Part shown: positions 1,623 to 47,081 of the stretch, in pieces
Numbering within the stretch: position 1 is the stretch's first letter
Layout of the letters: each line of letters begins with the position of its first letter
Source: a virus
Lineage: Duplodnaviria > Caudoviricetes
IMG/VR virus record: IMGVR_UViG_3300034120_000351
Coordinates: 1-53,614 of that record
Direction: 5' to 3' (one strand)
Length of the DNA: 53,614 bases
Position numbers and translations under genes: made by a program
Notes under the pieces: generated by a model
Told to the model about the DNA's origin: nothing
Seen by the model: only the letters and a program-made list of their open reading frames with translations
The model's database searches: none

Positions 1623-3757
1623 ATGCCGAACTTACCGCGTTCGATTGCGGCAACCACTTCTTCATTCACACGCAGGTAGTGGTTGGCTCGTCCCTGCGGC
1701 TTCTCTAACTCAATGCGCTCGAGCGATCCGTCGTTCAGCAAACTGGTGACGGCGCGTTCTTTGCGCTCTTGAGATGCTTTGACACCGCCCTGTGCCACGG
1801 GCAGACGTTCGTAGTAGGAGCGGCTCTTGCCCGCGTCACGGCGTACGAGTTCAATAATGTCGTCGCAGATCCGTGACCATTGCTCCTGCTCTTTTTGTTC
1901 TTTGCGGTCTTCCTTCATTTGCGTGCGCTCTCCTGGTTTGAGAGGACGGGCAACGGAGTGGCTGAACCAGATCTCCTTGTCGTAGCCTAGCACGTCTTTG
2001 TGGTTCTCTCGGTTTGACACGAGGTCAAAGGTGAGTTCAGCAAAGGCGGTGGGGAACCTGACCTTTGTCGCTTTGAGCACGCGGGGTGCGTCGGCATGCT
2101 CGCCGTCTTTGAACACAGTGTACACACCTTGCGCATCGCCCGTCCACGCTGATGCACCGCGAGGTGAGAGGAAGTCTGACTCAGATGAGCCGAGCGCCTT
2201 TGCTGTATGGCTGACGATGATTATAGGGAAGGTGGCAAACGCCTGTTTGATGTACGCCATGGCTCGCCCGACCTCAGCGTTGTCGTTTTCATTTTCCAAA
2301 TCAAATACCGCGTTCGCAGTATCAAACACCACCAACGGCAGCGCCGCGTGATACGTCCCATCAGCCTTCTCATTGTCCACTGTCCATTCTTTGTACTCGT
2401 CAGCCACTTGGGCGACTATCTTGGGGTCTAACCTCTGCGCGTTAACGACTCGCACTCGCTCGTTGAAGTCATTAACGGACAAGCCAGTGTAACCCCACGA
2501 GTAGAGCGAGTAAATGACGCGTTGAACCTGCACGACCGACTCGGTGATGATGATCACGTTGCGACGCACGGCGGGCTTGAGCACGTAGTCATGCGGGCAG
2601 AGGTGCGCAGTGGCTAACGCCATAGGCACGATGAGGGTTGTCTTACCGACTCCAGGAGAACCGGCGACTACGTTGACACCGGTTGACATAAAGTCCTCGT
2701 ATACGTACTCAAAGACGTTGACTTCACCCGCGCCTGAGGCGACTGAGTTTTTGAGACTGAGCGGATGAACTGCGGGTTTGCCGTCAGGGGTTGTAGCGGC
2801 GGCTTGCGGAGCCTCGTGAGTGTTACCCGCCCAGCCGTTATCAATCGCCATGCGGAAGATTGAGCGGTAGGTGATTGAGTGAGGGGTGCTGATGTCACGC
2901 TCCCACTTACGCCTCTGCGCGGCGGCATCAAACTTCTCACTGGTCGCCGCCCACTCGGTCCAGATCTTGTAGCCGTTCTCGCCGTACGGCTTGAGCACCA
3001 TACCGACGTTGACCCACGTTGTGTAGTCGTCAGCGTCAACATGTTTGAGCGCGGAGCGCAGGTCATCAAAGGTTTGAGCCGTGGCCACCGGAACACCGCC
3101 ACGCTCGGTGAGGCTATAATTGACCGGAGGTCGTGCTTTACTCGCTATCAGCTGAGGCAAGGGAGAGGGCTTTGCCGGACGGGTTTGACTGAGCGGCGAG
3201 CGCCCTTGTTGCCATTTGTAATCACCGGACGGTCCGAGCGTAGGCGCGACGCAGATATAGCCATGGTGCTTCAGGTCAAGACCTTTGCCGAGCGTGCCAG
3301 GATACGTCATGTCCTCATCAGCGGTGAACAGCCGATGCTCCCCGCCGCCTTGAGTCACTGCCGTACAGTCAGAGTGCATGACGCCGTGTTCGGCTTCTAG
3401 CTCTGCCAGCGAGTCAACACCGCCGTTCTGCGGGTCAATGTCCAGCGCCAGCAAACCTGACTCGGCGAGCGAAATACCGATGCCCGCGTTGGGGTCAGTT
3501 GCCCACCAGTCTTTGATGATTTGTTCGTCAACAGTAGCGTCTTGATGTCCGTGCGGAACTAACTCAGACTGAGGGTGCTTACCCGCCTTGTGACCTTTCT
3601 CAGTGTTAGGGCGACCGCACCGGCATTGACCGTGATCATCCACTGACCACACCGGTAACACGTACCAACCGAGCTTTGCGTAGGCTAACGCATAGTCTAG
3701 GGTTTTTGGTCCGTCAGTGTCTACTGCCCAGACATGCTTAGGCGTCTTGCTCGTCAT
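1619..3757 (-). CDS. Primase-polymerase (Prim-Pol/bifunctional AEP) with PriCT-2 and AAA_25/RepA-like helicase domains
   Basis: LALDID, TQGGGEHRLF and GYICVAP prim-pol motifs; DYTTWVNVGMVL PriCT-2; Walker A GSPGVGKT; Walker B VVFDT. Confidence 0.88.
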   Translation of the reverse strand: MTSKTPKHVWAVDTDGPKTLDYALAYAKLGWYVLPVWSVDDHGQCRCGRPNTEKGHKAGKHPQSELVPHGHQDATVDEQIIKDWWATDPNAGIGISLAESGLLALDIDPQNGGVDSLAELEAEHGVMHSDCTAVTQGGGEHRLFTADEDMTYPGTLGKGLDLKHHGYICVAPTLGPSGDYKWQQGRSPLSQTRPAKPSPLPQLIASKARPPVNYSLTERGGVPVATAQTFDDLRSALKHVDADDYTTWVNVGMVLKPYGENGYKIWTEWAATSEKFDAAAQRRKWERDISTPHSITYRSIFRMAIDNGWAGNTHEAPQAAATTPDGKPAVHPLSLKNSVASGAGEVNVFEYVYEDFMSTGVNVVAGSPGVGKTTLIVPMALATAHLCPHDYVLKPAVRRNVIIITESVVQVQRVIYSLYSWGYTGLSVNDFNERVRVVNAQRLDPKIVAQVADEYKEWTVDNEKADGTYHAALPLVVFDTANAVFDLENENDNAEVGRAMAYIKQAFATFPIIIVSHTAKALGSSESDFLSPRGASAWTGDAQGVYTVFKDGEHADAPRVLKATKVRFPTAFAELTFDLVSNRENHKDVLGYDKEIWFSHSVARPLKPGERTQMKEDRKEQKEQEQWSRICDDIIELVRRDAGKSRSYYERLPVAQGGVKASQERKERAVTSLLNDGSLERIELEKPQGRANHYLRVNEEVVAAIERGKFGI

Positions 3758-5310
3758 TATTCTGTTTCTCCGTTGAAATACTCCTCAAGCACATTCCAAT
3801 AGCGCCCAGACTTGCGTACAGTAACCGCGACCGGTTGTCGAGCGCCTTTCAGTTGCCACGTGAGTGAACGAGCAGGGGAGGGTAAGTTTACCGCAAGTGC
3901 GCGTCTTTTGAAAAACGCCACCGATTGCGATGTGGGTGTTTCGGTGCTGATGAAAGTAGAAGCGTCAATACGCGCCCCCTCATCCGTGACGCATGCGTAC
4001 TGCACGAGCAACACCGGTTGATTAGGGTTACGCCGCGTGGGTAGCGCGACGCAGTTAACACCGCTGACTGTGACTTTGATGATTGAGTCATCGGTCGCCT
4101 CGAGTCCGGTCATAGGGTCGATAGGCTTCAAAGTGCGCACACCAGGATAGACCTTGCGCTCTTTCTTGACGTAAGGCTTAGTGGGCACGGCGGGAAGCTC
4201 CTCCGGTTCAGCGTCAAGGCTCTGCCGGTAGAAGTTGTCGTACATGTCGACGCCGCCCAGCCGTTGCAGGTTACCGACGAAGTCAAGCACGAGGCAGTTC
4301 TTTTTGCTGTCGTGTAGGCGCGTGCCCCGACCTTGAATCTGAACCCACAGAGAGGAGGAAAGAGTTGGTCTCAGGCACACGATGCAGTCGAGCGCGGGGA
4401 AGTCAAAACCGGTGGTAATCATATCAACCGAGCAGAGCACACGGCTTGCGCCGCTCAGGAACCGATCCAAAATGTAGTCCCTGTCCGCGCCCTTCAGGTT
4501 GCCCGCCATGACTTCCGTTGACCAGCCGGTGACCTTGGTGATTGCGTTAGCGGCTCGCATAGCGGCGGTAATCGTTGGGCAGTACACCGCAATATGTTTC
4601 CGGTTGCCGGCGAGAGTGACTAACGATTCAGCCATTGACTCAAGCCAATCGTTCATCTGCTTGTCACCGACCTCGGTTTGCACAAAGTCGCCGCTCACGC
4701 TCACGTCCTCGAGGTCAAGTTGAAACGCGGTCTCAACGCCCACTAGCGGGCAGAGCCAGCCGTCGTGAACGGCGCGGGGTACAGGGTAGTTATAGGCGAG
4801 GCGGTCAAACCAGAACTGCTCTCCGTCACCGTAAATGATTCCGTTGTCCATGCGCCACGGCGTAGCGGTCATAGCGACGCGTTGAGCAGCGGGGTAACGG
4901 CGTAGGATTGATTCGTAGAGCGTCGGTTCACCCTCGTTGTGCGGGACGCGGTGGGCTTCGTCTATGATGATGAGGTCAGGCGCTTGCATTTCAGCTAGGA
5001 CACCCATCATGCTTTGAATGGTACCGAAGGTAACGTCGCCGTCAACGTCCTTGCGGTTCAGTCCCGCGCACACTATGGACGGCTTGAGTCCGCTATAGCG
5101 CGTGTAGGTGGAAGCGTTTTGCTTGACGAGTTGCTGAACGTGGGTGAGTACCCAAGTGTTTTTGCCGAGGTCTCTATAGAGGCTAGCTATAGCGGCGATG
5201 ATGAGAGACTTGCCCGTACCGGTGGCGAGTTGAAGCACAGGGTTGACGCCTTTCCCTAGCGCGGCTATAGCGGCTTGGGTTGCTTCGTCTTGGTAGGGTC
5301 TGAGTTGCAT
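3757..5310 (-). CDS. Superfamily 2 DNA helicase (DEAH)
   Basis: LRPYQ Q-motif, ATGTGKS, DEAH, TATP, TGFD and QIQGRGTR motifs. Confidence 0.93.
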   Translation of the reverse strand: MQLRPYQDEATQAAIAALGKGVNPVLQLATGTGKSLIIAAIASLYRDLGKNTWVLTHVQQLVKQNASTYTRYSGLKPSIVCAGLNRKDVDGDVTFGTIQSMMGVLAEMQAPDLIIIDEAHRVPHNEGEPTLYESILRRYPAAQRVAMTATPWRMDNGIIYGDGEQFWFDRLAYNYPVPRAVHDGWLCPLVGVETAFQLDLEDVSVSGDFVQTEVGDKQMNDWLESMAESLVTLAGNRKHIAVYCPTITAAMRAANAITKVTGWSTEVMAGNLKGADRDYILDRFLSGASRVLCSVDMITTGFDFPALDCIVCLRPTLSSSLWVQIQGRGTRLHDSKKNCLVLDFVGNLQRLGGVDMYDNFYRQSLDAEPEELPAVPTKPYVKKERKVYPGVRTLKPIDPMTGLEATDDSIIKVTVSGVNCVALPTRRNPNQPVLLVQYACVTDEGARIDASTFISTETPTSQSVAFFKRRALAVNLPSPARSLTWQLKGARQPVAVTVRKSGRYWNVLEEYFNGETE

Positions 5311-5344
5311 TAAATAATTCTCCAGTTATACGTTATCACTGCGA

Positions 5345-6757: not shown

Positions 6758-6930
6758 CCTCACGCATCACATTCCTGCTCATCCTGATCGCGCTCGGCGC
6801 GGTTGGGACGTTTGATTACGACAGCGCGGTTGATGAGGAGATCGCGTATTGCGACCGCCTCAAAAACAAAGTGCACACCGACTACAACCGCATCAAGAGC
6901 ACCTGCGCGGCTCGCCACTGGAGCAAATAA
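6754..6930 (+). CDS. Hypothetical membrane-anchored or secreted peptide, 58 aa (MTSRITFLLILIALGAVG...)
   Basis: Read manually; N-terminal hydrophobic stretch; coupled start. Confidence 0.6.
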   Translation: MTSRITFLLILIALGAVGTFDYDSAVDEEIAYCDRLKNKVHTDYNRIKSTCAARHWSK

Positions 6931-6931
6931 C

Positions 6932-7633
6932 ATGAGAACACGAATTGTTTGGAGCACCGAAGAAAAAGCCGCTCACTATGAGCGCCTTGTGTTGCTGTTC
7001 AAGGGTAATCCCGCTCTTGACTCTAAGACCGCGTTCCGTGAGGCTCAAGACGCCCTGCGCTATGAGCGCCACCGCAAGATCACTGACGGCACGGTCTTCA
7101 CGCATAAGGTGATGATAGCTAAGGCGCGTGCTGAAGCTAAGCGCGACCCTATCCCGCAGCCAGCAGTGACTGCCGCACCGGTCGCCGCTGAACCCGCTAA
7201 CCCGCTGCTCAAGATCTTTGACGACCTGCTTGACTTGTTAGCTGACCGCATAGCGGAACGCCTTCGCCCGCAGATGACGTTCACTGAAGTCAAAGAGCAG
7301 ATTAACACTCAGTTTGACACGCAGTTCAAGCGCTACAAGGCTGAGGTAACACCGCCTAAGCCCCGCAAGCCCACTGTGTTGATCATCGGTTTGAACGGCT
7401 GTCAAATGTCGGTGGTGACCAGCAAGTACCTTGACGTTAAGTTCTCATTCATGACCGGTGAGGAGGCTGTGAGCCGTAACCGGTTTAATGCTGATCACAC
7501 AATCTTGATGACTAAGTTTATCAACCACAGCGCTCAAGCTAAGTACCGCACAGCGCCTAACCTCCATTACTGCAACGGCGGTGTGTCTGACTTGACTACG
7601 CTTATGCACATCATCATGAAAGGTTCAGTATGA
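6932..7633 (+). CDS. Hypothetical protein with DUF2325-like C-terminal domain (start revised to MRTRI)
   Basis: GGAG RBS; VLIIG...ADHTILMTKFINH...CNGGVSDL resembles DUF2325. Confidence 0.6.
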   Translation: MRTRIVWSTEEKAAHYERLVLLFKGNPALDSKTAFREAQDALRYERHRKITDGTVFTHKVMIAKARAEAKRDPIPQPAVTAAPVAAEPANPLLKIFDDLLDLLADRIAERLRPQMTFTEVKEQINTQFDTQFKRYKAEVTPPKPRKPTVLIIGLNGCQMSVVTSKYLDVKFSFMTGEEAVSRNRFNADHTILMTKFINHSAQAKYRTAPNLHYCNGGVSDLTTLMHIIMKGSV

Positions 7634-7740
7634 ACAACTGGCCATTCCCACCCCCAACCGGTCCCGTGCCTTGGACTGCTAAGCAGATTCGCGAATATGC
7701 ACGTAAGCGCATCGAGCAGACCGAAAAAGCCCCTTTTTAA
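7630..7740 (+). CDS. Hypothetical peptide, 36 aa (MNNWPFPPPTGPVPW...)
   Basis: Read manually; ATGA coupling. Confidence 0.5.
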   Translation: MNNWPFPPPTGPVPWTAKQIREYARKRIEQTEKAPF

Positions 7741-7765
7741 TCAGAATTTTCCTTGGAGATTTGAA

Positions 7766-8194
7766 ATGAATACAGTAAACTTTTCCAGCATGACGACCCC
7801 ACAATTAGTGTCGTTTTATAACCGCCACAGTACAACACCGGTCAAGCGCTTTAGCGACCGCAAAACCGCCGAAAGGCGTTGTGCTGAGGTCTTTGAGAGC
7901 TTGCTCTCCCCTGTACCTACTAGCAAAGTGATTAAACAAGTGGTTGACACCTCTACCCGCCCAGTCATGAAGGACTCGCTCAAGCTCGACCGCACGATCA
8001 TCTGCGTGAACACCGGCGCTACGTGGAAGAATGCGTATCAGATGTGGCGCGACAATCCTGACTGGATGACTAGCGCTCAGCAAGACCGCTTGACCGCCCA
8101 GCTCTACGCCGCCGCTAAGGTCGGTGAGCAGAAGATTATTGAAATCAATGACCGCAGCTTCATGTTGGTTAACATTAAAGGAGTAAAGAAATGA
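7766..8194 (+). CDS. Hypothetical protein (start revised to MNTVN)
   Basis: GGAG RBS before 7766; VKRFSDRKTAERR motif. Confidence 0.7.
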   Translation: MNTVNFSSMTTPQLVSFYNRHSTTPVKRFSDRKTAERRCAEVFESLLSPVPTSKVIKQVVDTSTRPVMKDSLKLDRTIICVNTGATWKNAYQMWRDNPDWMTSAQQDRLTAQLYAAAKVGEQKIIEINDRSFMLVNIKGVKK

Positions 8195-8415
8195 CTGAGA
8201 ACGCACCTGTGTTGGCGGGCATAAAGTGGTTCACGAGCGGTAAGGGTCTCGTGGGCGTAGCAGCGGTGCGCATTGAGACCGGCGACATCAAGTTCTACAT
8301 CGCCCCCGCTGATGGTTTCAACGAGGTGATCGACTCTAATTTGATCATGTCACACGGAGCGCCTTTCCCCGAGGACGCCGGTTACGCATTATTTGTAAAG
8401 GAAGAGTTAGCATGA
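8191..8415 (+). CDS. Hypothetical protein
   Basis: AAGGAG RBS; coupled. Confidence 0.7.
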   Translation: MTENAPVLAGIKWFTSGKGLVGVAAVRIETGDIKFYIAPADGFNEVIDSNLIMSHGAPFPEDAGYALFVKEELA

Positions 8416-9368
8416 ACACCGTATTTCCCGACCTGTCGCTTGACCGCAACGTCGTCAAGTGGGAGCAGCACCTTGGCACTCAGACGCCGTGGGAGAATCA
8501 CAAGGGCTTGTGGTTCAAGCGTGAGGATTACTTTGCGCCGCTCGGCTATAGCGGTCCCAACGGCTCTAAGATGCGCCAGCTGATTTGGTACGTCAACAAG
8601 TTCCGTCAAGGTAAGACCCACATCGTGACCGGCGCTAGCATTCAGTCCCCTCAGCTGAGCATGAGCGCTATCGTGGGTGCGCACTACGGCTTGCGCGCTC
8701 GGCAGATCGTCTATAGCAAACCTGAGACTGTGTTGCGTCATGAGAACCCTCGCATTGCCTACGGCTTTGATGCTGAGTTTGAGTACGCTTCTGGTCCGTA
8801 CAACCCTATCCTGCAGCGCAAGGTTGTTGACCTGACGCAACCTACCTCGCTCGTCGTAGAGTACGGCATTACCGTGCCACATGACCGCTACCCTGAGGAC
8901 GACGTGCGTAAGTTTCACGAGGTCGGCGCTCATCAGACAGCTAACATCCCGCCCGAAGTCAAGCGCCTCATCGCCCCTGCTGGGTCGTGTAACTCGCTGA
9001 CGAGCATTATGCTCGGCTTGAGCCGTGACTCGCACAATATTGAGGAACTGTTCACGATCGGCATCGGTCCCGACAAGCGCGGCTGGATGCGTGCTCGGTT
9101 AGCCTACATCGGCATTGACATTGACAAGCTGCCGTTCAAGTGGAAGCACTTTAGCCTGCACGACAGCGGCTACAGCAAGTACAGCGATCACTTCACCGGT
9201 GAGAATTTTGACGGCATCCGCTTTCACCCGACCTACGAGGCTAAGATGTGGCGCTGGTTGACACACAACAACCAGTTAGATTATGATGACCATACCGCCT
9301 TCTGGATTGTGGGCAGCGCCCCTGACACGAAGATTGTTGAACCCTTTTACACTAGGAAGTTTTCATGA
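8412..9368 (+). CDS. PLP-dependent enzyme (fold type II, ACC deaminase/D-cysteine desulfhydrase-like); probable DNA base-modification decarboxylase
   Basis: WFKREDY...GPNGSKMRQ PLP-lysine motif, PAGSCNS phosphate loop and HPTYEAK; adjacent to thymidine-modification genes. Confidence 0.8.
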   Translation: MNTVFPDLSLDRNVVKWEQHLGTQTPWENHKGLWFKREDYFAPLGYSGPNGSKMRQLIWYVNKFRQGKTHIVTGASIQSPQLSMSAIVGAHYGLRARQIVYSKPETVLRHENPRIAYGFDAEFEYASGPYNPILQRKVVDLTQPTSLVVEYGITVPHDRYPEDDVRKFHEVGAHQTANIPPEVKRLIAPAGSCNSLTSIMLGLSRDSHNIEELFTIGIGPDKRGWMRARLAYIGIDIDKLPFKWKHFSLHDSGYSKYSDHFTGENFDGIRFHPTYEAKMWRWLTHNNQLDYDDHTAFWIVGSAPDTKIVEPFYTRKFS

Positions 9369-9553
9369 GACAACAACAAGCATTCCCAAGTGAAGAATAT
9401 TACGGCATGAATTTGCGTGATTACTTCGCGGCTCAGGCTATGCAATCATTTACAGGAGACGTTGGCTGGAAATCTGACCAGAAATGGTTTGAAGAAATTG
9501 CAGAAGGCGCTTACAAGGTTGCAGACGCAATGATGAAAGCGAGGGAAGCATGA
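9365..9553 (+). CDS. Small hypothetical phage protein (LRDYFAAQAM...AYKVADAMMKARE family)
   Basis: Recognisable widespread small phage protein pattern; coupled on both sides. Confidence 0.75.
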   Translation: MRQQQAFPSEEYYGMNLRDYFAAQAMQSFTGDVGWKSDQKWFEEIAEGAYKVADAMMKAREA

Positions 9554-10551
9554 CCGATTATCGTCTACCTGAGAACCGCGCCGCGTATTTCTCGGCGCTG
9601 TACAAGATGAACCTTGAGCATGGTGTTATGCCAGGACTGGTTTATCTGTACATGCCTGAGTTAGCCCGCCGCTGCGAATGGGACGCTGAGCAGAAGCTCT
9701 GGTTCGCCTTTCTGAACGGCTTGACGCAGAACCCGATCACCTCGTTACGCTTGCTCAGCCGACTGCCGAGCGTGCCTCCTGCGGGCGCTCAGTTGACGCA
9801 GTTCAATGATTGGTTCAATGCTGAGTGGGATACGCTTCAGTTTGACACCGACCGCCGCTACCAGAAGCGCGACACCCTTGAAGCCATCAAGACTTACGCT
9901 AAGTTGGTCGAGGAGTTCGGCTCTCAGGAGGCAATGCTGACCGGTAAGCCTTACTCCGAGCTTTGGGATCTTGTGCGTAACCGCTACTACAGCTTCGGTC
10001 GTCTGTCATCGTTCAGCTACCTCGAGTATGTCTACCTGAACGGCTTCGGCGCTGACTGCGATGATCTGATGTTTAGCGACAAGTCGGGCAGCAAGTCACA
10101 CCGCAACGGAATGCTGTTTTTAATCGGCAGAGACGAGCTGGTGTGGGACAAGCGCCTGCCCAACGGACAAGACGGCAGCTACCCTAAGTTCAACCTGATG
10201 TGCGGCTTCCTCGCTGCGGAGGCTGACAAGTACATTGATAGCTTCAACGCCGCCAATCCTGGCATCGCTCACGCGGGTCGCTTCACTATGGAGTCAAACC
10301 TTTGCACGTTCAAGAATCATTTCTTCGGTCGTCGCTACCCAGGAGTTTACGCGGACATGGCGTGGGAGCGGATTGAGTGGGCTGAGGCGCGTGACCAAGG
10401 CGAGTACACCGAGGTGTTCAAGGACATGCGCTCACAGCTCTTGCCTGACTGGTTACGCGCTGAGTGTGAGACCGAGCCGTTGACCGTAAAACAGAAAGCC
10501 GCCGTGTTCCCTGAGACCGGTTCACCCTATAGAGCGGAGTACTTTTTATGA
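9550..10551 (+). CDS. Amino acid:DNA transferase (aGPT-Pplase2/ADDT family)
   Basis: FDTDRRY, FGRLSSFSYLEY, SHRNG and ESNLCTFK...RRYPGVYAD motifs plus gene context. Confidence 0.8.
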   Translation: MTDYRLPENRAAYFSALYKMNLEHGVMPGLVYLYMPELARRCEWDAEQKLWFAFLNGLTQNPITSLRLLSRLPSVPPAGAQLTQFNDWFNAEWDTLQFDTDRRYQKRDTLEAIKTYAKLVEEFGSQEAMLTGKPYSELWDLVRNRYYSFGRLSSFSYLEYVYLNGFGADCDDLMFSDKSGSKSHRNGMLFLIGRDELVWDKRLPNGQDGSYPKFNLMCGFLAAEADKYIDSFNAANPGIAHAGRFTMESNLCTFKNHFFGRRYPGVYADMAWERIEWAEARDQGEYTEVFKDMRSQLLPDWLRAECETEPLTVKQKAAVFPETGSPYRAEYFL

Positions 10552-11126
10552 AGCATATCATCCTGCGAATTGCCGGCACGTTCGGCTCGGGCAAGACCAC
10601 CGCGATGCGCGGCTTCTTCAACTACCCGCACACAGTTTTGATGAGCGGTAAAAAGATCGCCGGTTATCAAGTCGACGCCAGCTCTGCCGGAATCAGCGAG
10701 CCGATCTTTGTGGTTGGCAAGTATGACAACACGTGCGGCGGCACAGACGCCATCAAGACACAGGCTGAGATTGCCGAGAAGATCCTGAAAGCACACCCCC
10801 ATGGCCATGTGTTATACGAGGGCGCTTTAGTGTCTGCGAGCGGACTCGCCGGTCAGGTGACGCAAGCCATTCACCCTACCGGCTGCGATGTGTACGCCTT
10901 TCTTGACACTCCGCAAGACCTCTGCGTTGAGCGGGTTAAGGGGCGTCGCCTCGCCGCCGGCAACGACAAAGAGTTTGACCCGAAGAACCTGATTGACAAG
11001 TTTGAGTCGGTTGTCAACTGCTACAAAAACCTGCGCAAAGAAGGCACGTACGACGTGCGTCTGATTGACCACACAGACCCGCACCCCGCGCTAGTAGAAA
11101 TCATAAAGGAGTATGAAAATGCGTGA
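10548..11126 (+). CDS. P-loop nucleotide kinase, probable 5-hmdU DNA kinase catalytic part
   Basis: Walker A GTFGSGKTT, VGKY...CGGTD and LYEG motifs; context. Confidence 0.78.
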   Translation: MKHIILRIAGTFGSGKTTAMRGFFNYPHTVLMSGKKIAGYQVDASSAGISEPIFVVGKYDNTCGGTDAIKTQAEIAEKILKAHPHGHVLYEGALVSASGLAGQVTQAIHPTGCDVYAFLDTPQDLCVERVKGRRLAAGNDKEFDPKNLIDKFESVVNCYKNLRKEGTYDVRLIDHTDPHPALVEIIKEYENA

Positions 11127-12039
11127 CAATTGCCCTTACCCTATGCCGACGCCGGAGACAGTTTGCTCGATGGCGGGTCTGCTTTACTTCATCTGGGAGC
11201 GGGAGGCTATCCGCATCGCTCGTGAGAACGGTCACAGCGCTCCGTGGACTAAAGACCCTGTACTCGCTAAGTACAAGTTCACCAACATCCACCGCTGCGA
11301 TGATCGCGTTTCGGTTTGGGTGATTGATCGGTTGATTGAGCCAGCGACCGCTCGAGGCGATGAGCACTTGTGGTTCACGCTGTTGATCGCCCGCCTGATC
11401 AACTGGCCGCCCACGCTACAGGCGCTGCTTGACAAGGGGGTCATCCCCTGCGCTCCTGAAAACTTTGATGCTGACTTGTTTGAGCACACGCTTGAGCGTA
11501 TCAAGAAAGACGGCAACAAGGTTTACTCCGGCGCGTACATGCTCTACCCGACTAAGATGGAGCCAGGAGGCAACAAGTCTAAGGCGGTGGCAAAGTACAT
11601 CATCGGCAGCGCGGTTGAGAACGCTGACAATATTAGCGCGGCGCTGTGGAACGATGGCGGGATGATGTCTATTGAGCGGTTCGTAGCTGAACTGAGCAAG
11701 TGCTTCGGCATCAGCACCTTTATTGCCGGACAGGTCGCCGCTGACTTGACGTACACCGGCATGGACGTTGAAGACTTGTTCACTTACGCGCCTATCGGTC
11801 CTGGTAGCTCGCGTGGGCTAAACTATTTGCTCGGCAAGCAGCCGTTCGCCACGTGGAAGCAGAAAGAATTCAATGCCGAGCTGAGCAACATCTTCAGCGA
11901 GATCGTTGATAAATTAGAAATCGTAGACATGACGCTGCATGATGTGCAGAACTGCATGTGCGAGTTCAGCAAGTACTGCCGCGCCGTACTCGGCGAGGGT
12001 AAACCTAAAACAACCTACCAACCAGAAACGGAGTTCTAA
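11113..12039 (+). CDS. 5-hmdU DNA kinase helical-domain protein (aGPT-Pplase1 family)
   Basis: ERE.IR...PWTKDPVLAKYKFTNIHR.DDR, RLINWP, GAYM, F.AGQVAADL, GPGSSRGL and QNCMCEFSKY motifs. Confidence 0.85.
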   Translation: MKMRDNCPYPMPTPETVCSMAGLLYFIWEREAIRIARENGHSAPWTKDPVLAKYKFTNIHRCDDRVSVWVIDRLIEPATARGDEHLWFTLLIARLINWPPTLQALLDKGVIPCAPENFDADLFEHTLERIKKDGNKVYSGAYMLYPTKMEPGGNKSKAVAKYIIGSAVENADNISAALWNDGGMMSIERFVAELSKCFGISTFIAGQVAADLTYTGMDVEDLFTYAPIGPGSSRGLNYLLGKQPFATWKQKEFNAELSNIFSEIVDKLEIVDMTLHDVQNCMCEFSKYCRAVLGEGKPKTTYQPETEF

Positions 12040-13899: not shown

Positions 13900-13900
13900 C

Positions 13901-34820: not shown

Positions 34821-35120
34821 TTATGATGTTGCCCAAGGTGTTCCTGTAGCAGTCACAGGATTCTTCTGCAAGGCGATGTTAGCCGCTAAAGAGGCTTCAA
34901 TTGTGTCTTTGTCGCTACCGCTAGCCCACACCCACCCGAGCACCATTTCTTGCGTCAACTGATCGTAAGGCACCACGGGAGAGCCTAAAGGCCATGTCGT
35001 TGTTGAAAAAATAGAAGCGTTGTATGTGCCATCCACGGCTACCGCTTGCCAGTACGCTGTCGTGACGAAACCATTGTCAATTTCGTAAACGAGCTTAGAG
35101 ATGCTCCATGTAAAAGTCAT
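34821..35120 (-). CDS. Tail-fibre-associated small protein
   Basis: TWSI...PYDQLT..VLGWV...GTPW pattern; follows the fibre gene. Confidence 0.65.
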   Translation of the reverse strand: MTFTWSISKLVYEIDNGFVTTAYWQAVAVDGTYNASIFSTTTWPLGSPVVPYDQLTQEMVLGWVWASGSDKDTIEASLAANIALQKNPVTATGTPWATS

Positions 35121-35129: not shown

Positions 35130-36965
35130 TTAAGGGTGTGATAATTTGTAAGCATCGAACTCAGCTTTAAGCTCTTTGATAGCCGCGACTAAAAGTGGAA
35201 TTGTGTCTGTGTAACCCAACCACATCCGACCATCGTCAGCAATAGACACCGCCTCTGGAAGTACCTTCTGCACGTCCTGCGCAATTAAGAATGCGCGTGA
35301 TGCGCCCTCATTGTCAACAACGTACCGACCAGTTACGGCGCGAAGTGTCATTACTTTAGATAACCCGTTTTCAATAGGGACAAGATTGGTTTTGTGACGT
35401 TCGTCTGAAATCGAAGTCCACGACCCGCTTCCTGCCGTCAACCCCACCCCACCTGTACTACCGTTCATCAGGATTAAGTAACCGCTGTTTGCAGGGTTGC
35501 GAATTATTGGGTTTCCACTCCAACCCACGCCGCCAGCGTCACCAAAATAAAGGTTTGAGCCATCGCTAACATGAAACTTGGCACCAGGAGTTTTAGTCCC
35601 GATAGCTACGTTCATGTTCATAAACGTCATCACCTGCGACCAGCCAGCGGGGTTGAAAAAATTGTTACCCCAAACCAGACCACGAACTGGTGAAGAAGTA
35701 TAGTTCTCTAGCGAGTAGTAATAAGGACCAGTCGTCTCATTGAACCATCTAATCGAATCGGTTGAATTATTAACATACCTAAAGAAATTAAGGGAATTAG
35801 TCGAAGTAGGACTAAAGGTTACAGTTGTCCCGTTGGTTTCCATCATCGATGGCGCGGCGGCAAACGAACCAGCGTTGTTGTACTGGAATTGACCAGTAGA
35901 ACCCGCAGGGCTTCCACCACCGCCGCCACCAGCCGCCCAAATAGGGGGTGAGCCTGAACCTTGTGATGTCAGGACTTGACCGCTTGTGCCGTAGTTAGCA
36001 CCTGATAAGCCGATTGCGCCAGATGAAGCGATGCGAAGACGCTCTGTTGGTTCGGTGTCAGTATTTACACTTCTAGTGTAAAAAGCCAAATCACCATATG
36101 TTGTCCCTGCATTAAAAGTTTCAACAAAACCAAAATATGCAGGGTAATAATTATTTGTGCTTTTATACCCAAAACCAATTAAACGCTTTCCACCAACACC
36201 ATTTTCGGTTGCGCCAAGTCCCAAATATGTTGAACCATTACCAATAGCAGTTGCATTAGATTGAGCAACTTGAAGTTTTACATTAGGCGAACTTGTCCCA
36301 AGACCTAGATTACCTGCGGTATCAAAGGTTGCGCGAGCCGTATCGTTTGTTGTCAGATAAAGCGGGTGATTGCTACGCGCACCCATGTAAACCGCGCTGT
36401 TTGTATTACTAGAAATTGTCTGAGCAATAACAGATGTACCAGTAACAAGGCTAATTGCGTTGCCACTTGAGTTGGCAAGTTCTAAAGTTTTAAATCCGCT
36501 AAATGTAGTAGGCGAATTCGTCCCAATACCCAGATTGCCAGTAGAACCAACAAATCTTGCTTGCTCAGTTCCATTAACCTTGACAATAACATCTCGGTTT
36601 GCACCATTTGCATTTAGCGATAGGTCAGCACCAGATGATGATTGAACAGTAGCAAGAGCTTGTAAAGTTCCACCGCTAGTAATGTTCCCTGTGCACGAAA
36701 GATTAGTACCATCAAAAGTAAGCGCAGAGCCACTTGTCGCTTGGCCTGAGCTGTTGACGTACACAACACCATTAGTGGTGATCGGGGCGATAGCCCCTGT
36801 AGCGCCTGCTAACAGCGTTACCGTGCCAGAGTTGTTTTTGTAGTACAGCTTGCCGTCGGTGATGTTGATCGCCAACTCGCCGTTCTCTAAGCTCGTATTG
36901 ACAGGTACAGCCGACGCGGTCGTGCTGTAGTAGAGTTGGATGGGGGTGTAGCCAATAGCTGCCAT
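35130..36965 (-). CDS. Tail fibre/spike with C-terminal intramolecular chaperone (peptidase S74)
   Basis: GELAINITDGKLY N-terminal module, GNLGIGT.SP repeats, SDERHKTN...LIAQDV...LVAAIKEL. Confidence 0.88.
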   Translation of the reverse strand: MAAIGYTPIQLYYSTTASAVPVNTSLENGELAINITDGKLYYKNNSGTVTLLAGATGAIAPITTNGVVYVNSSGQATSGSALTFDGTNLSCTGNITSGGTLQALATVQSSSGADLSLNANGANRDVIVKVNGTEQARFVGSTGNLGIGTNSPTTFSGFKTLELANSSGNAISLVTGTSVIAQTISSNTNSAVYMGARSNHPLYLTTNDTARATFDTAGNLGLGTSSPNVKLQVAQSNATAIGNGSTYLGLGATENGVGGKRLIGFGYKSTNNYYPAYFGFVETFNAGTTYGDLAFYTRSVNTDTEPTERLRIASSGAIGLSGANYGTSGQVLTSQGSGSPPIWAAGGGGGGSPAGSTGQFQYNNAGSFAAAPSMMETNGTTVTFSPTSTNSLNFFRYVNNSTDSIRWFNETTGPYYYSLENYTSSPVRGLVWGNNFFNPAGWSQVMTFMNMNVAIGTKTPGAKFHVSDGSNLYFGDAGGVGWSGNPIIRNPANSGYLILMNGSTGGVGLTAGSGSWTSISDERHKTNLVPIENGLSKVMTLRAVTGRYVVDNEGASRAFLIAQDVQKVLPEAVSIADDGRMWLGYTDTIPLLVAAIKELKAEFDAYKLSHP

Positions 36966-40250: not shown

Positions 40251-41227
40251 TTGGTGTAAACCCCAATACCAGGATTGATCTGAATAGGCGAGCCGTCATT
40301 GTCACCATCCCACGCACGCTGCAAGCTCATAGCGGCTCGTTGCTCAAGCATAGGGATGAGCTGGGCGTCAACTTGCGGGGTCTCGGAGGCGACCTTAGCG
40401 GTCAGGTTGTCAACAATCGCATTCAACCAGCGCTGAGGCACTTCTACGTCTTGCTGAAGGTTCGCAGTGTCCATGATCTGACGATGGCGCCAGAGGATCA
40501 ACTGAGCCTGCTCAGCAGCAATGAACGGCGCTGGCCAGAGGTATACCACCGGCTCAGGTAGGTCGCGCTGAAAATAATAATTGCTAGGACGACCAGGAAA
40601 CACTTTGTTGCTCTGGTTTACGTAGCTGTCGCGGTTCAGCTGCCCGAGGGGGATCTCTTGAGGCATATTGCCGAGGCTGATTACCGCATAGTTGAAAGTT
40701 GCCGTAGAGGTAATTCTGAAGTACTGGTAGGGCAATGCACCAGAAATGTCTGTCCACGTAATCTCGCCCGCGCTCGCGGTGTCTGAGTACGTCCCTACGG
40801 TAACCCAAACAGTTCCGTTCGTGCTCACCTGAAAGGTCAACGGAGTTGACGCACCGGACCATTCAACACCTACAGTGTCTACAACGGTCTGGGTGGTGAA
40901 GTTTACGGTGTACGAGGTTGACGTCGCTACGGTAGCGCCGGTCACAGGCTGGATGACGCGGTAATTCAGGTTGAGGACTTCGACCGTGCCGTTAGGTAAG
41001 GTGACAATCGGCTGGTTTTCGTACATAGGTAGAATCAGCTTCTCAATACACCAGCTAGGGGTTTTGATGCTCGCTAACTCAGACAGGAACAAATACAGAG
41101 ACTCTAGAGCATAGGTCTGCATTTCGCCTGTGATAGCCTGAGCGGGCAGACGACAACGCCTGAAGGCGTGGTCTACCACCTTCAGCGCGTTAAATGTCGT
41201 TGTGCTCACTGTGCCGGAATATGCCAT
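40247..41227 (-). CDS. Head-closure / adaptor-type virion protein
   Basis: MAYSGT...AFRRC, NK..PGRP.NYYFQR, YLWPAP and EVPQRW motifs. Confidence 0.65.
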   Translation of the reverse strand: MAYSGTVSTTTFNALKVVDHAFRRCRLPAQAITGEMQTYALESLYLFLSELASIKTPSWCIEKLILPMYENQPIVTLPNGTVEVLNLNYRVIQPVTGATVATSTSYTVNFTTQTVVDTVGVEWSGASTPLTFQVSTNGTVWVTVGTYSDTASAGEITWTDISGALPYQYFRITSTATFNYAVISLGNMPQEIPLGQLNRDSYVNQSNKVFPGRPSNYYFQRDLPEPVVYLWPAPFIAAEQAQLILWRHRQIMDTANLQQDVEVPQRWLNAIVDNLTAKVASETPQVDAQLIPMLEQRAAMSLQRAWDGDNDGSPIQINPGIGVYTK

Positions 41228-41763: not shown

Positions 41764-42543
41764 TCACGCTAGCGTGTTTTTGATCAGAACCAAAATGAAC
41801 ATGGACGAAACAGCGTTATTGTTTGCGCTACCTATTGCTGTGGCTTCAATGGTGGTCTTTTCAGGAACCGCCAGAGGATACTCAAATACATAATTCGCCA
41901 CGCCGTTGTTGAGCGTGGTGATCGCGGCAGTCTGCCTAATGTTGTTGGAACCTCTAGTCAGCAATCTACCCTGAACCTGAGTTGACCCGCTGGCTTGACC
42001 GGTAGAAAACAGACCTTGAGCGACATACGCAGTGTAGCCCTCAGGCACCGTATAACTTCCCGTGGTTGTGTTGTTGTAGTCAAACTTGATGATGTCGTAT
42101 GCGGTCGCAGGAACGCCTGCGGTCACAGTGCCGGTGCCGATGTAGATGTCGCCAGCCGCGCTGTTACCAGAGCCTGCTGTAGCCACATAAGCATAGTTCA
42201 CACGAATCAACGCCGCAGTCATCGTCACAGCAGTCTGACCATTCATGGTGACTGTCTCAGTGACTTCGCTGTAGTTTGCGTCAAGACCTTGAACAACAAT
42301 CGTTCGCGCACCGGTACCAGCAGAAGTATCGTTCGCACTCGTTGAGCTGACCGTCATCTGAATAGCAGACGCAGGAAAAGTAATCAGGCTGGGCAAAGGC
42401 CAGACAGACACCTGAGTCGTGTCTACGTCTGGATTAAAACCGAACACTGTTACGTTTCTGTGCCCCTGAATTTGACCGCGAGAAACTTGAAGTTCAAACG
42501 GACCGAACTCTCCGAACTGAGTTACTGATGCAGGTGCGCCCAT
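41764..42543 (-). CDS. Putative virion structural protein
   Basis: 259 aa, beta/Thr-rich, in the head module. Confidence 0.6.
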   Translation of the reverse strand: MGAPASVTQFGEFGPFELQVSRGQIQGHRNVTVFGFNPDVDTTQVSVWPLPSLITFPASAIQMTVSSTSANDTSAGTGARTIVVQGLDANYSEVTETVTMNGQTAVTMTAALIRVNYAYVATAGSGNSAAGDIYIGTGTVTAGVPATAYDIIKFDYNNTTTGSYTVPEGYTAYVAQGLFSTGQASGSTQVQGRLLTRGSNNIRQTAAITTLNNGVANYVFEYPLAVPEKTTIEATAIGSANNNAVSSMFILVLIKNTLA

Positions 42544-43525: not shown

Positions 43526-44440
43526 TTAAACGCCAGCAGTACCGAACACGCCACGTGGGTCAGTCCAACCCAATGTGTAACGCTCAGTAGCCTTGTAGCG
43601 CATAGAGTCAGTCTCGAAGTCGCCTTCCATAGACTTCTCCAAGCCACGACGCATCAACAACTTCAAGCCTTCAGGCGCATCGGTCTGCACCCACCATGCG
43701 GTAGATGAAGTGATACGTGACAAGTTAGCTTGGCCATCAGCCAGCAAGCCCATGGACTTAACTGGGTTGATGTCGTTGTCGGCTGTGCCGGTGCGCAAGA
43801 CGCTCTTCAAGAGGACTTCTGCTTGGAACACGTTAGAAGGACCGGAAACGATCTTCTTAGGTGTCAAACGGATACGCTTACCGTTGTTGTCAACGGCGTT
43901 ACGGATCTGAATCAGCAACTGCTCAAGAGAGGTTTGTGACAAGTTAGCGGGGGTGCTCAGCTGATTGCTGAACGTGCCGTTAACGATTGGGTGGTTAGTT
44001 GCAACCAACGCCACACCGTCACCACCAACATACGCGCCGTTGAAGGCACGATTCAAGATGTTAGCTGCGAGGGTTTCCTTAGTCTCGATCAAAGACTGCG
44101 CCAAGTGCTTGGCGTAAGTCTGACCGATACGGATGTGGTCGCCGTCTTCCACCAAGACTTTGGTCAAGCTGAATGCCAGACCGTAGACTTTGTAGAGGTA
44201 GCGTTGCAAGAACAACACGCCACCAGACTGGTAAGAAACAGCCATACCGTCGGGCAGTTCAGGCGCTGCGCCAAAACCATAAAGAACAGGTTCTTCATGG
44301 TAGTTGCGAGGGATGCCTTTTTGCTCGCGGAAGACCATCTTCCACTCGTCAGCACGTTGGTCATAAACACCATCGAACACTTCGTTGAGGATAGGCTCAA
44401 CAACGGACCGGAAGTCCGTACTACGCATTGGGGTAGCCAT
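43526..44440 (-). CDS. Major capsid protein (HK97 fold)
   Basis: 304 aa; TKE..AANILNRAF...GGDGVAL...HP and GDFETD..RYKA.ERY..GWTDPRG motifs; strong RBS and terminator. Confidence 0.88.
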   Translation of the reverse strand: MATPMRSTDFRSVVEPILNEVFDGVYDQRADEWKMVFREQKGIPRNYHEEPVLYGFGAAPELPDGMAVSYQSGGVLFLQRYLYKVYGLAFSLTKVLVEDGDHIRIGQTYAKHLAQSLIETKETLAANILNRAFNGAYVGGDGVALVATNHPIVNGTFSNQLSTPANLSQTSLEQLLIQIRNAVDNNGKRIRLTPKKIVSGPSNVFQAEVLLKSVLRTGTADNDINPVKSMGLLADGQANLSRITSSTAWWVQTDAPEGLKLLMRRGLEKSMEGDFETDSMRYKATERYTLGWTDPRGVFGTAGV

Positions 44441-44455: not shown

Positions 44456-45049
44456 TTATACCGAGTTCACAGCAGCTTTGTAGTGGTGTTCGTTGATACG
44501 AACAGACACAACTACGTAGGCGTCAGTGAGCGAGTCGTTGATCTCATATCCAAAGCCGGTAATCTGGAATTGACCAGATGTGCTCTGAATGGCGGTCAGG
44601 TAAGTGTTTGACAAACCTGTTTGTGTTGAGCCACCAGGAGAGGCGACTGTCCAATCACACTCTTCGCCGACAGCTGTTTGCACAGTTGTACCAGCAGAAG
44701 GGTTGTTGTATTGAACATCAAACAAAGTTTCAGGGTCATCATACACCCATGCTGTGATCTCAGTACCAGTCGTGCCAGAAGGCCAGAAAGGAGAAATCGT
44801 GGGCTTGCCGGAAGCGTCCAAGTACTGAACACCTGCGAAGATGCCCAACAAAGAAACTCCGTCGGTCGTGCCTGAACGAGTACCGTCAGACGTGCCGAGT
44901 TGAATAACACCGTTATCAGTCAACTTTACGGGGTCACCGCTGAAGATGTTGGCTGCATAGGTGCTAGCGATTACATAGGCTTTTGGGCGCATCTGACCAC
45001 TGTTGTGGTAAGACGCACGAAAGCCAAAGGGTGCGCTTGTCGAAGACAT
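44456..45049 (-). CDS. Capsid decoration / minor head protein
   Basis: APFGF...IFSGDPV...GIFAGVQY...VYDDP pattern, directly upstream of the capsid gene. Confidence 0.65.
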   Translation of the reverse strand: MSSTSAPFGFRASYHNSGQMRPKAYVIASTYAANIFSGDPVKLTDNGVIQLGTSDGTRSGTTDGVSLLGIFAGVQYLDASGKPTISPFWPSGTTGTEITAWVYDDPETLFDVQYNNPSAGTTVQTAVGEECDWTVASPGGSTQTGLSNTYLTAIQSTSGQFQITGFGYEINDSLTDAYVVVSVRINEHHYKAAVNSV

Positions 45050-45682: not shown

Positions 45683-46654
45683 TCACGCTTTGTTAGCGCG
45701 GTCGTACTCGGAGTAACGCTTAGCGTACTTCATGCGCAGTACGGGGTCATCCCACACACCTGCGTCAATCAGTGCCTGCTTGCGCTCGGGACTGAGGTAG
45801 ATCTCCTTACGTGTTGACGCAGGGGCGTGCTCACGTCCGGAACCTACAGCGGGACCACCGCGTGGAGTGCGTTCCTCCCTAGGCTCGCGAGTGTCGCGGC
45901 GCTCGGTCTTGAACTTCTCGGGTAGGCGGCGGGCAGCACGCTTACGCAATTCATCCCAGTATTCCTCAGACTGTGGATTGTAACCGTCCTTGGCCAATGA
46001 TTGGTCAATAGCGATCACAATGGCTGAATCCTCATCACGACCTTGCGAGTCATACCATGGATTCTCTTTGATGAACTCGTTAGCGTAATGCATGGTCATG
46101 TCATCAAGCTGCTGACCCTGTGGCTGGGGGCGTTGCTGGGCGGCTTGTTGCTTGGCGAACTGGAGCTGCTGCACCTTCTGCATCGCCTGATCGCGATACT
46201 TCAGCGCCTGAGCTACGTCCTTGCCGTTGCCCGCCTCCACCGCCTTAGCGATGACGCGTTCCGCCATCTCGGCTTCCTTCGCCGCGTTGGCAATGTGCGC
46301 ATCATACGTGCCGAGGTCTACCTGATGTGCTCGTTGCTCCTGAGCAGATACGCGGCGCTCAAGGTCATCATTGCGTTTACGCAGGAAGTCCAGCTCGAGT
46401 TTGTCGCGTTTGATGGCTTGATCACGGCGCTCTTTGCGCTCAAGTTTCTCAAGTCGGCGTCTCTCGCGGATCGCCTCTCGCTCGTCGTCATTCCCGTCGC
46501 CGTCATCGTCGGCAGCGGTGGACGCCGTGCGGTCGTCTTCTTCATGATCATCATCCTGTTGATCATCCTGTCTGTCACTTAACTTTGACTCGTCTTCTAC
46601 GATGATGATTTCCTCACCACCGCGCTCGTCGTCTTCTTTCATTACATTAGCCAT
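45683..46654 (-). CDS. Capsid scaffolding protein
   Basis: Acidic N-terminus, long coiled coil, ENPWY and EEYWDEL motifs; between portal and capsid. Confidence 0.72.
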   Translation of the reverse strand: MANVMKEDDERGGEEIIIVEDESKLSDRQDDQQDDDHEEDDRTASTAADDDGDGNDDEREAIRERRRLEKLERKERRDQAIKRDKLELDFLRKRNDDLERRVSAQEQRAHQVDLGTYDAHIANAAKEAEMAERVIAKAVEAGNGKDVAQALKYRDQAMQKVQQLQFAKQQAAQQRPQPQGQQLDDMTMHYANEFIKENPWYDSQGRDEDSAIVIAIDQSLAKDGYNPQSEEYWDELRKRAARRLPEKFKTERRDTREPREERTPRGGPAVGSGREHAPASTRKEIYLSPERKQALIDAGVWDDPVLRMKYAKRYSEYDRANKA

Positions 46655-46667
46655 AAGTCATCTCCTT

Positions 46668-47081
46668 TCAGATGAATGCTCGGATTGCCAGCGGGTCACC
46701 AGTTACCTGCCCGATGATATCCAAGTCGTTAAAAATAACAAACATCGCAGAGTCGTCAGTGCCAGGAATCTTTACTTCCCAGCGGTCACCGCCGTACTTA
46801 GCCACGCGAACGTATTCACCAGCTTTGCACCACTCGCCCTCTGGCCACGTCTTCATGTCATTGCGGTTCTTGAAAGCCAGCGGACCCAAGGCAATTACTT
46901 TGCCAATTTGAGTGTTCCACTTTTCTGTTTCATTGTTACCCGCGATGTCGAGAATGATGCCCCCAGCGGACTTTTTCTTCGGTGTGCGAATCTGAATCAG
47001 AACACGGCTTCCGAAAGGCTGAATGCCAGCATCTACTGCTGGAAAAGCCTCCGCCATTGCGTTCTCATAAGTCATTGTCAA
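46668..47081 (-). CDS. GroES-like co-chaperonin
   Basis: IQPFGSRVLIQ, KSAGGIIL mobile loop, GKVIALGP, KYGG and NDLDIIG motifs. Confidence 0.85.
   Translation of the reverse strand: MTMTYENAMAEAFPAVDAGIQPFGSRVLIQIRTPKKKSAGGIILDIAGNNETEKWNTQIGKVIALGPLAFKNRNDMKTWPEGEWCKAGEYVRVAKYGGDRWEVKIPGTDDSAMFVIFNDLDIIGQVTGDPLAIRAFI

Follow-up and report, generated by a model that had tools for sequence, protein, structure and literature searches.

The window and its candidate hypermodification genes

The window considered here is the entire virus record IMGVR_UViG_3300034120_000351 (Duplodnaviria; Caudoviricetes), 53,614 bp of DNA with a GC content of 53.2%. It is rated as 98% complete and linear, and it occurs in 24 lake-water or freshwater metagenome runs, as assembled contigs only. 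This analysis deals with two of its features: the tetranucleotide GGCC, which is almost missing from the window except within the hexamer TGGCCA, and a gene cluster at 8.4-13.6 kb that is predicted to hypermodify thymidine in the phage DNA. The identities of the genes in the window were assigned with PHROGs and Pfam.

The cluster is read from the plus strand and adjoins the gene of the DNA polymerase (13820-15742, plus strand). A putative amino-acid:DNA transferase (ADDT, or aGPT-Pplase2; 9550-10551) matches PF18724 with 66 bits over profile positions 16-227 of 232. It is followed by a candidate 5-hydroxymethyldeoxyuridine (5-hmdU) DNA kinase, whose P-loop part and helical domain are encoded by separate, adjacent open reading frames (ORFs). 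The P-loop kinase ORF (10548-11126) matches PF18748, the 5-hmdU DNA kinase, with 26.4 bits at a cut-off of 27, and the ORF of the helical domain (11113-12039) matches PF18723 with 146 bits. The latter aligns to the C-terminal half of SP10 gp186, a 5-hmdU DNA kinase according to Table 1 of Lee et al. 2021 (PMC8989533). Next is a homologue of thymidylate synthase (12041-13078; PF00303, 80 bits; phrog_5131, E=8e-105), which is 42% identical to the SPO1 gene annotated as dUMP hydroxymethylase, a likeness that cannot separate a hydroxymethylase from a methylase. The last gene product, an HD-domain 5'-deoxynucleotidase-like protein recognized by Pfam (13142-13630), presumably clears the nucleotide pool.

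The first gene of the cluster (8412-9368; phrog_3650) is unassigned and has a weak similarity to fold-type II pyridoxal phosphate (PLP) enzymes. It matches no Pfam family, and its similarities to D-cysteine desulfhydrase (E=0.06) and to a PHROG threonine dehydratase (3e-5) are faint. The gene is kept in 11 of 11 cluster genomes checked, at 56-95% identity, and may encode a new tailoring enzyme.

Depletion of GGCC in the window

The window contains exactly 21 copies of GGCC, as against 269 expected from base composition and 176 from a second-order Markov model. The initial annotation had counted about 21 by eye and had put the compositional expectation at a few hundred, and both figures hold. 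In 1000 codon shuffles, in which synonymous codons were permuted within genes with all proteins and the codon usage of each gene preserved, the expectation is 204.8±11.0 and the minimum 172. Under the Markov model no other 4-mer is depleted nearly as strongly as GGCC (observed/expected 0.08), TATA being the next at 0.34, and in the window and its purged relatives GGCC is the sole 4-mer palindrome below 0.3 of expectation. The alanine codon GCC (374) and the glycine codon GGC (515) are still frequent, and the avoidance therefore acts via codon context rather than via codon loss.

The depletion depends strongly on the bases that flank the core. TGGCCA occurs 16 times against a codon-shuffle null of 20.1±4.1 and is not depleted. 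AGGCCA/TGGCCT occurs 4 times (null 28.0), CGGCCA/TGGCCG once (36.0) and the seven remaining NGGCCN classes not at all (about 121), so that the nine classes other than TGGCCA sum to 5 against about 185. At all 21 sites a T lies directly 5' of the core on at least one strand. The palindrome is depleted as in type II site avoidance, but the uniform avoidance of all copies is not seen, TGGCCA being spared. What the window avoids is GGCC except as TGGCCA, which holds its neutral frequency. Randomly distributed flanks had been named as an outcome that would speak against this pattern; judged by the same null, the distribution is far from random.

By the gene calls, nine of the sites are forced by Trp-Pro, eleven are avoidable sites in coding sequence, and one is intergenic (TGGCCA, 7639-7644, between ORFs 6803-7633 and 7697-8194). 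The coordinates of sites given here are those of the NGGCCN hexamer, and the GGCC core starts one base later. Avoidable TGGCCA is found at 3082-3087 (Val-Ala-Thr, GTG GCC ACG) in the primase-polymerase/helicase ORF (1619-3757, minus strand), at 10802-10807 (His-Gly-His) in the P-loop kinase ORF, at 15436-15441 (Gly-Gly-Gln) in the DNA polymerase, at 18111-18116 (Met-Ala-Thr) in the ORF of a Cas4-like exonuclease, at 24462-24467 (Leu-Ala-Thr), 25037-25042 (Ser-Gly-Gln) and 27292-27297 (Ala-Gly-Gln), at 34253-34258 (Val-Ala-Met) in ORF 33753-34286 (minus strand), at 43731-43736 (Asp-Gly-Gln) in a major-head-like ORF, and at 45991-45996 (Leu-Ala-Lys). The only avoidable site with a single 5' T is TGGCCT at 36742-36747 (Ser-Gly-Gln), in the tail-fibre ORF 35130-36965 (minus strand), where it borders a stretch of 42% GC.

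The forced sites, too, are mostly TGGCCA. Those at 26517-26522, 31171-31176, 31602-31607 and 40532-40537 encode Trp-Pro on the minus strand with CCA as the proline codon, and the one at 46842-46847 reads Trp-Pro in open frames of both strands. The others are TGGCCG at 11404-11409 (plus strand, CCG) and, on the minus strand with CCT, the TGGCCT sites at 34989-34994 (in the 102-codon ORF 34821-35120, minus strand), 42397-42402 and 44780-44785.

The initial annotation had stated that the avoidable survivors are almost all TGGCCA, and all of its nine coordinates for such sites, as well as the TGGCCT at 36742 with its position at the edge of an AT-rich fibre segment, are correct; the same bias among the forced sites had been overlooked. 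Its eleven forced sites are reduced to nine on recounting, eight in long ORFs and the one with its core at 34990 in the 102-codon ORF, since at 7640 and 34254 Trp-Pro is read only in frames of 37-61 codons.

Three of the five window sites with one 5' T (34989, 36742 and 42397) fall in the 12% of the genome that cannot be aligned to the other purged genomes, in segments unique to the window, and the sole avoidable one is among them, in the AT-rich tail-fibre segment. This distribution is in keeping with a recent acquisition of such DNA, on which the purge has yet to act.

Tryptophan-proline codons

CCA is the rarest proline codon of the window (120 of 834, 14%), and after tryptophan it is used in 5 of 8 cases with the curated gene calls and in 5 of 7 with automatic calls (binomial P=0.0008). 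In the window (G000) and three of its relatives (G001-G003), CCA after tryptophan amounts to 5/7, 5/8, 6/8 and 9/12 against a baseline of 14-18%, and in two relatives without the cluster to 4/13 (baseline 28%) and 0/8.

The dipeptide itself is also affected. Trp-Pro occurs 8 times in the window against 11.4 expected. In phages without the kinase it stands at 0/15.2 (SPO1), 0/20.6 (CP-51) and 3/15.7 (SP8), and in the four kinase phages SP10, Nachito, LysYB1 and YungSlug at 7/15.6, 6/20.0, 5/18.8 and 13/19.6, respectively. All Trp-Pro pairs of Nachito (6 of 6) and of YungSlug (13 of 13) are written TGGCCA. The constraint on GGCC extends to the proteome, and a modification of DNA can loosen the limits on the choice of codons and even of dipeptides.

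Freshwater relatives

The genomes G001-G003 are near-complete and 84-85% identical to the window over about 42 kb. Where 251-306 GGCC would be expected they contain 41, 28 and 18, of which 16, 18 and 15 are TGGCCA. The Trp-Pro sites of the window are conserved among them: those at 26517 and 44780 are kept, the TGGCCG at 11404 is TGGCCA in all three, and the site at 31602 has CCT in two. Five avoidable TGGCCA of the window (cores at 3083, 15437, 24463, 25038 and 27293) have no counterpart at the orthologous position of any of the three relatives and belong to the window lineage only. The avoidable sites thus turn over, which indicates that new GGCC arise by mutation and persist only as TGGCCA, and that the sites do not form a conserved functional motif. 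When purged genomes and loci are pooled, the surviving sites that are not homologous number 117; a 5' T is present on at least one strand in 114 of them and on both in 61, and no base preference was seen at positions -2 to -6.

Whole-genome counts are given below as observed/codon-shuffle null for sites with no 5' T, with one 5' T and with two, the last being TGGCCA. The window scores 0/96.6, 5/83.8 and 16/18.9. The other purged genomes with the cluster score 3/81.8, 22/83.2 and 16/21.4 (G001); 0/85.4, 10/80.4 and 18/21.6 (G002); 0/102.9, 3/91.0 and 15/21.4 (G003); 0/85.4, 1/77.8 and 18/19.1 (G013); 0/23.4, 0/29.5 and 11/10.2 (G014, in which 11 of 11 sites are TGGCCA); and 0/36.9, 9/44.8 and 19/14.4 (G015). 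Summed over these seven genomes, some of which are about 70% identical, the three classes stand at 3/512, 50/490 and 113/127.

A search with the portal protein covered 80 IMG/VR loci of 468 relatives. The loci form two classes, a purged one (ratio at most 0.2), whose survivors are nearly all TGGCCA, TGGCCT or TGGCCG, and an unpurged one. All three near-complete purged genomes contain the helical domain of the kinase, and neither of the two unpurged ones that are complete or 92% complete does. In five contig fragments the kinase was not found, which is uninformative, as one purged fragment is also without it. The unpurged G004 and G005, both of them structural relatives, are without the whole replication and modification module. 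They contain 208 and 412 GGCC with all flanks present, at ratios to the null of 0.76, 0.93 and 0.96 (G004) and 0.86, 0.81 and 1.03 (G005). Relatives without the modification cluster had been proposed as a place where the same TGGCCA bias might appear; in these two there is neither depletion nor bias. Caulobacter phage RW and MW202545, which are also structural relatives, likewise show no depletion, and the first 50 kb of each has no annotated cluster genes.

A search with the kinase domain, covering 64 loci, returned purged and unpurged lineages, and TGGCCA is near expectation in every purged one. On a quick tree of the kinase, the purged state falls in at least three to four separate clades (of 53%, 40% and 44% GC, and L145). 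Five more cluster genomes are weakly depleted, along the same gradient: sites without a 5' T stand at 0.27-0.59 of the null, those with one at 0.72-1.11, and TGGCCA at about 1.0, G019 being an exception with 0.56. The cluster is therefore not the cause of the purge, which probably depends on the host. In these sequences the predicted cluster accompanies the exemption of TGGCCA and not the purge itself.

Some observations on the relatives stand apart. In the portal relatives L029 (the same as L171), L061, L030 and L176 the pattern is the opposite, TGGCCA being zero and GGCC otherwise normal (GGCC/TGGCCA 60/0 in L029, 37/0 in L061 and 47/0 in L176); a match to the kinase domain was not found in the record that holds L176. 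This suggests a TGGCCA-specific, MscI-like restriction in some hosts of such relatives. The kinase genes of the loci L132 and L133 scarcely differ from that of the purged L140, yet L133 is unpurged (ratio 0.84) and L132 is partly purged (TGGCCA 3, one 5' T 0, no 5' T 6), which suggests mosaic genomes or a very recent change of host. The tetranucleotide TCGA is at about half of the codon-shuffle expectation in the window (95/223.7) and in G013-G015 (77/191, 68/133 and 67/157), as it is in Nachito, LysYB1, YungSlug and nACB2.

Kinase-containing and kinase-less phages

An independent comparison is offered by the Spounavirinae of Bacillus and Lysinibacillus, all of which have a homologue of the SPO1 gene annotated as dUMP hydroxymethylase and only some of which have the 5-hmdU DNA kinase. 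Among those with the kinase, the three classes stand at 1/53.0, 24/49.3 and 15/11.5 in SP10, whose DNA has been described as hypermodified (PMC5889632), at 0/36.6, 0/39.9 and 33/18.1 in Nachito, at 0/54.9, 1/59.5 and 37/21.9 in LysYB1, and at 0/30.5, 23/41.0 and 55/24.1 in YungSlug. The counts for those without it are 1/59.3, 1/54.7 and 2/9.7 (SPO1), 0/64.6, 2/61.7 and 5/13.6 (SP8), and 0/48.4, 0/45.2 and 0/10.8 (CP-51). TGGCCA thus sums to 140/75.6 with the kinase and to 7/34.1 without it. HaeIII digests SP8 DNA, in which 5-hmdU is the only modification, to completion in vitro (PMC7653180, Table 3), and plain 5-hydroxymethyluracil is therefore no shield.

The Acinetobacter phage nACB2, of the Ackermannviridae, has the kinase domain and the transferase and scores 0/55.8, 25/67.4 and 26/25.4. 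Judged from these genomes, the exemption of TGGCCA tracks the predicted 5-hmdU kinase in three unrelated phage groups. The phages phi_M6, PhiW-14 and Klebsiella phage May were also considered; GGCC is not depleted in them, and they provide no test.

Polarity and other cores

In AGGCCT the two base pairs beside the core each contain a T, placed on the 3' side of the core on each strand. Over nine purged kinase genomes this hexamer is found at 0/76.2, and TGGCCA in the same genomes at 230/164.4. The dependence on a 5' T also holds for other cores: GCGC in Nachito stands at 0/61.5, 15/55.3 and 18/14.7 with no, one and two 5' T, and CCGG in nACB2 at 1/43.3, 13/44.9 and 24/14.4. In the clade of the window no dependence on flanking T was seen for CCGG, GCGC and CGCG, which are undepleted there. 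The depletion, the exemption, its polarity, the turnover of sites and the link with the predicted kinase can all be read from the genomes themselves.

A rule by which TG is protected and TC is not had been considered on account of a loss of TCCGGA and TCGCGA in the Bacillus-type phages, and was dropped. The kinase-less SP8 also loses TCCGGA (0/13.4) and keeps other CCGG (30/64.3 and 77/68.8), so a separate TCCGGA-specific pressure acts there. In nACB2 TCCGGA is spared, a sign that the context in that phage is T before either G or C. The initial annotation had proposed TG as the modified context. The part of this claim that stands is that a T directly 5' matters; TG is not separated from any other 5' T. 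For the window itself, the flanks indicate only that the T directly 5' of the first G is important.

Further hexamers and cores were noted in passing. In phi_M6, a Pseudomonas phage (L251-L254), TCCGGA (0/19.4) and TCGCGA (0/22.2) are missing and AGGCCT is low (3/20.5); the remaining CCGG and CGCG sites are at normal levels, as is TCNNGA as a whole. A Nodularia phage (L278-L285) is poor in the T-flanked GC-only hexamers TGCGCA (0/11.9), TCGCGA (1/14.5) and TCCGGA (3/14.1). CGCG is stripped from SPO1 (0 in the first 100 kb, 161 by composition), SP8 (1) and CP-51 (0), and CP-51 has 5 CCGG against about 67.

Proposed mechanism

Which modification is present, which enzyme restricts the phage and how the shielding works sterically are inferred from these patterns. 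The explanation that we favour, with a probability of roughly 0.78, is that a GGCC-specific restriction acts on the phage and that hypermodified T shields the bases 3' of it. The hosts of the lineage would carry a GGCC-cutting activity of the HaeIII or BsuRI type. The phage would replace T by 5-hmdU, phosphorylate the base in the DNA and add an amino-acid-derived group. GGCC would be purged because a site free of T cannot be protected by a modified T within it and would be removed by selection. TGGCCA would be the exception, each of its strands having a modified T immediately before GG. The C5 side chain of each would lie in the major groove and point 3', over the two guanines read by the enzyme, and two such thymines would cover all four base pairs. 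A single shielded strand would be insufficient, the enzyme still cutting often enough for counter-selection; sites with one 5' T are purged about tenfold or more. In AGGCCT the adducts on the 3'-side T would point away from the site and give no protection. The claim of the initial annotation that a T-free site is removed unless both strands carry an adjacent T is supported by the flank classes and by the kinase comparison.

A tethered aminopropyl chain was reportedly oriented 3' in a nuclear magnetic resonance study, as its title has it. A cation tethered to the C5 of thymidine lies in the major groove and bonds to guanine O6 in the following G:C pairs (PMC6294506). Phages of this kind replicate with 5-hmdUTP; the 5-hmdU in their DNA is then modified by way of a phosphorylated intermediate, with the help of an amino-acid:DNA transferase (PMC8989533). 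In the proposal of Flodman et al. 2019 (PMC6449724) the kinase prefers TG/TC; they mention unpublished results in which TG in SP8 DNA is modified by the M6 kinase, and they speculate that TG directly 5' of GC-only sites gives resistance.

Several findings weigh against this explanation. The match of the P-loop kinase is 0.6 bits below the Pfam cut-off. The five weakly depleted genomes show that the cluster alone brings no purge, and nine matches in genome collections are phage contigs sitting in bins of metagenome-assembled genomes of conflicting taxa, which name no host. In the 5-hydroxymethyluracil-only phages TGGCCA is at 0.21-0.37 of the null and the other classes at about 0.02, so part of the TGGCCA bias may need no hypermodification. 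The Nodularia phage has a weak match to the kinase domain and no transferase, and its TGGCCA is depleted (4/14.0). Neither TCCGGA nor TCGCGA is exempt in Nachito, LysYB1 and YungSlug. Finally, shielding by itself would not lead one to expect the over-representation of TGGCCA in YungSlug, LysYB1 and Nachito. Purged sites could escape by mutation of a flank and be funnelled into TGGCCA; PhiW-14 has TGGCCA at 170/105.7 though its GGCC is not depleted, and flank-mutation escape therefore cannot be the whole explanation of the excess.

A restricting enzyme with a flank rule of its own, which cuts VGGCC and not TGGCC, would make thymine modification irrelevant and predicts the same three classes in the window. 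This appears improbable. Within the same host genus the 5-hydroxymethyluracil-only Bacillus phages purge TGGCCA (7/34.1), yet those with the kinase keep it (140/75.6). Moreover, the same exemption is seen in phages of Bacillus, Lysinibacillus, Acinetobacter and freshwater hosts, and with GCGC and CCGG as the core, which would require many enzymes with the same odd 'not T' rule.

A TGGCCA-specific methyltransferase, either a host orphan or one of the phage, could protect TGGCCA and leave other GGCC exposed to an endonuclease. Such methylation exists in a freshwater methanotroph (PMC7720504), and the relatives that avoid TGGCCA specifically indicate that TGGCCA systems circulate. No match to PF00145, PF01555 or PF02086, the three main families of DNA methyltransferases, was found, however, in six frames of the window, and the pattern spans phages of 42% to 54% GC. 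A host methylase should also benefit SPO1 and SP8, for which B. subtilis is the recorded species, as it is for Goe26 and SBSphiC, near relatives of SP10, but SPO1 and SP8 lose TGGCCA. We regard this possibility as very improbable.

Hardly credible is a GGCC nuclease encoded by the phage, for example for the degradation of host DNA, whose own target the phage would avoid. The purge does switch on and off between close relatives, as it would with a gained or lost gene, and many ORFs of the window have no assigned family. No ORF of the window, however, is present in all six purged genomes and yet absent from all seven weakly purged or unpurged ones, and the sole nuclease domain found in the window is that of the Cas4-like recombination exonuclease. 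Least credible of all is that TGGCCA is a positively selected motif for protein binding or packaging and that GGCC was lost for an unrelated reason: TGGCCA is above the null in YungSlug (55/24.1), LysYB1 (37/21.9), Nachito (33/18.1) and PhiW-14, but in the clade of the window it is at or slightly under it (113/127), and its sites are scattered in coding sequence, turn over between relatives and show no preference at -2 to -6 among the 61 non-homologous sites.

Beyond shielding by hypermodified T stands a broader proposition, which we hold to be probable, with less assurance than the shielding itself: that hypermodified T casts a 3'-directed shadow of one base pair, which is needed on both strands, has shaped at least three unrelated phage groups and lifts the ban on Trp-Pro, and that sequence alone reveals the hypermodification, the specificity of the host and the reach and polarity of protection. 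A bolder corollary is implied. Known phages hypermodify only part of their T, yet TGGCCA appears to be reliably protected, so the kinase would modify nearly every T that precedes G (or G/C). The analysis addresses which thymines become hypermodified and how partial modification protects a genome, and the answer derived from evolution would be that protection extends exactly one base pair past the modified T, on the 3' side only, with both strands needed. Plain sequence may then serve as a predictor of phage DNA chemistry and of the restriction specificity of hosts, including those of uncultured metagenomic phages, and the signature gives sharp bench predictions for the cultured SP10, Nachito, nACB2 and SP8.

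Other genes of the window

Besides the primase-polymerase/helicase and the DNA polymerase, the window encodes an SF2 (superfamily 2) helicase, a Sak4-like annealing protein and the Cas4-like exonuclease. The structural genes are those of the portal (47407-49899), the major-head-like protein and tail fibres. No tRNA genes were found in the window. Megablast of 20 kb of the window against a phage collection gave zero matches, and the best match of the DNA polymerase is only 40% identical.

A large terminase was not identified among the ORFs of the window. The terminase gene probably sits across the contig break, because ORF 3-263 (minus strand) runs off the start of the contig and the record is 98% complete and linear; the other contig end is formed by 53396-53614. 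Adjoining the portal is ORF 49908-53399 (minus strand) of 1163 amino acids, which has no Pfam family and a PHROG match limited to its first 91 residues (phrog_7595, of unknown function). It is 68-76% identical in the closer relatives and faintly similar (23-27%) in G014 and G015.

Comparison with known systems

The predicted gene set of the window, beside the DNA polymerase and with a candidate kinase, corresponds to that of the known hypermodification pathways of M6, ViI, PhiW-14, PaMx11 and SP10 (Lee 2018, 2021), from which it differs in the division of the candidate kinase over two ORFs. The gene at 8412-9368 does not match the published PLP, radical-SAM (S-adenosylmethionine), FAD (flavin adenine dinucleotide) or acetyltransferase genes at Pfam thresholds. 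Three elements of this picture are already known: the avoidance of restriction sites, the hypermodification of thymidine, and the idea that GC-only sites might be protected by a modified T beside them. Full-text literature searches, with subscription journals and supplements outside their scope, returned no report of flank-dependent avoidance, its polarity, the two-strand rule or the effect on Trp-Pro.

The shortage of GGCC in SPO1 was noted decades ago. As in SPO1, which has 4 GGCC against 204 expected, a short palindrome of the window is far below a protein-preserving null. SPO1 and CP-51 represent the extreme of such avoidance, in which the Trp-Pro dipeptide itself is lost. Unlike in SPO1, the avoidance in the window is flank-dependent, TGGCCA is at its expected count, and the ban on Trp-Pro is relaxed.

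The closest precedent at the bench is the in vitro work of Flodman et al. 2019 (PMC6449724), in which some GC-only sites in the DNA of M6, ViI and PhiW-14 resist cutting; HaeIII and MscI are absent from the main text of that paper. Unlike in that work, the rule described here is drawn from the evolution of genomes, together with its polarity, its need for both strands and its controls.

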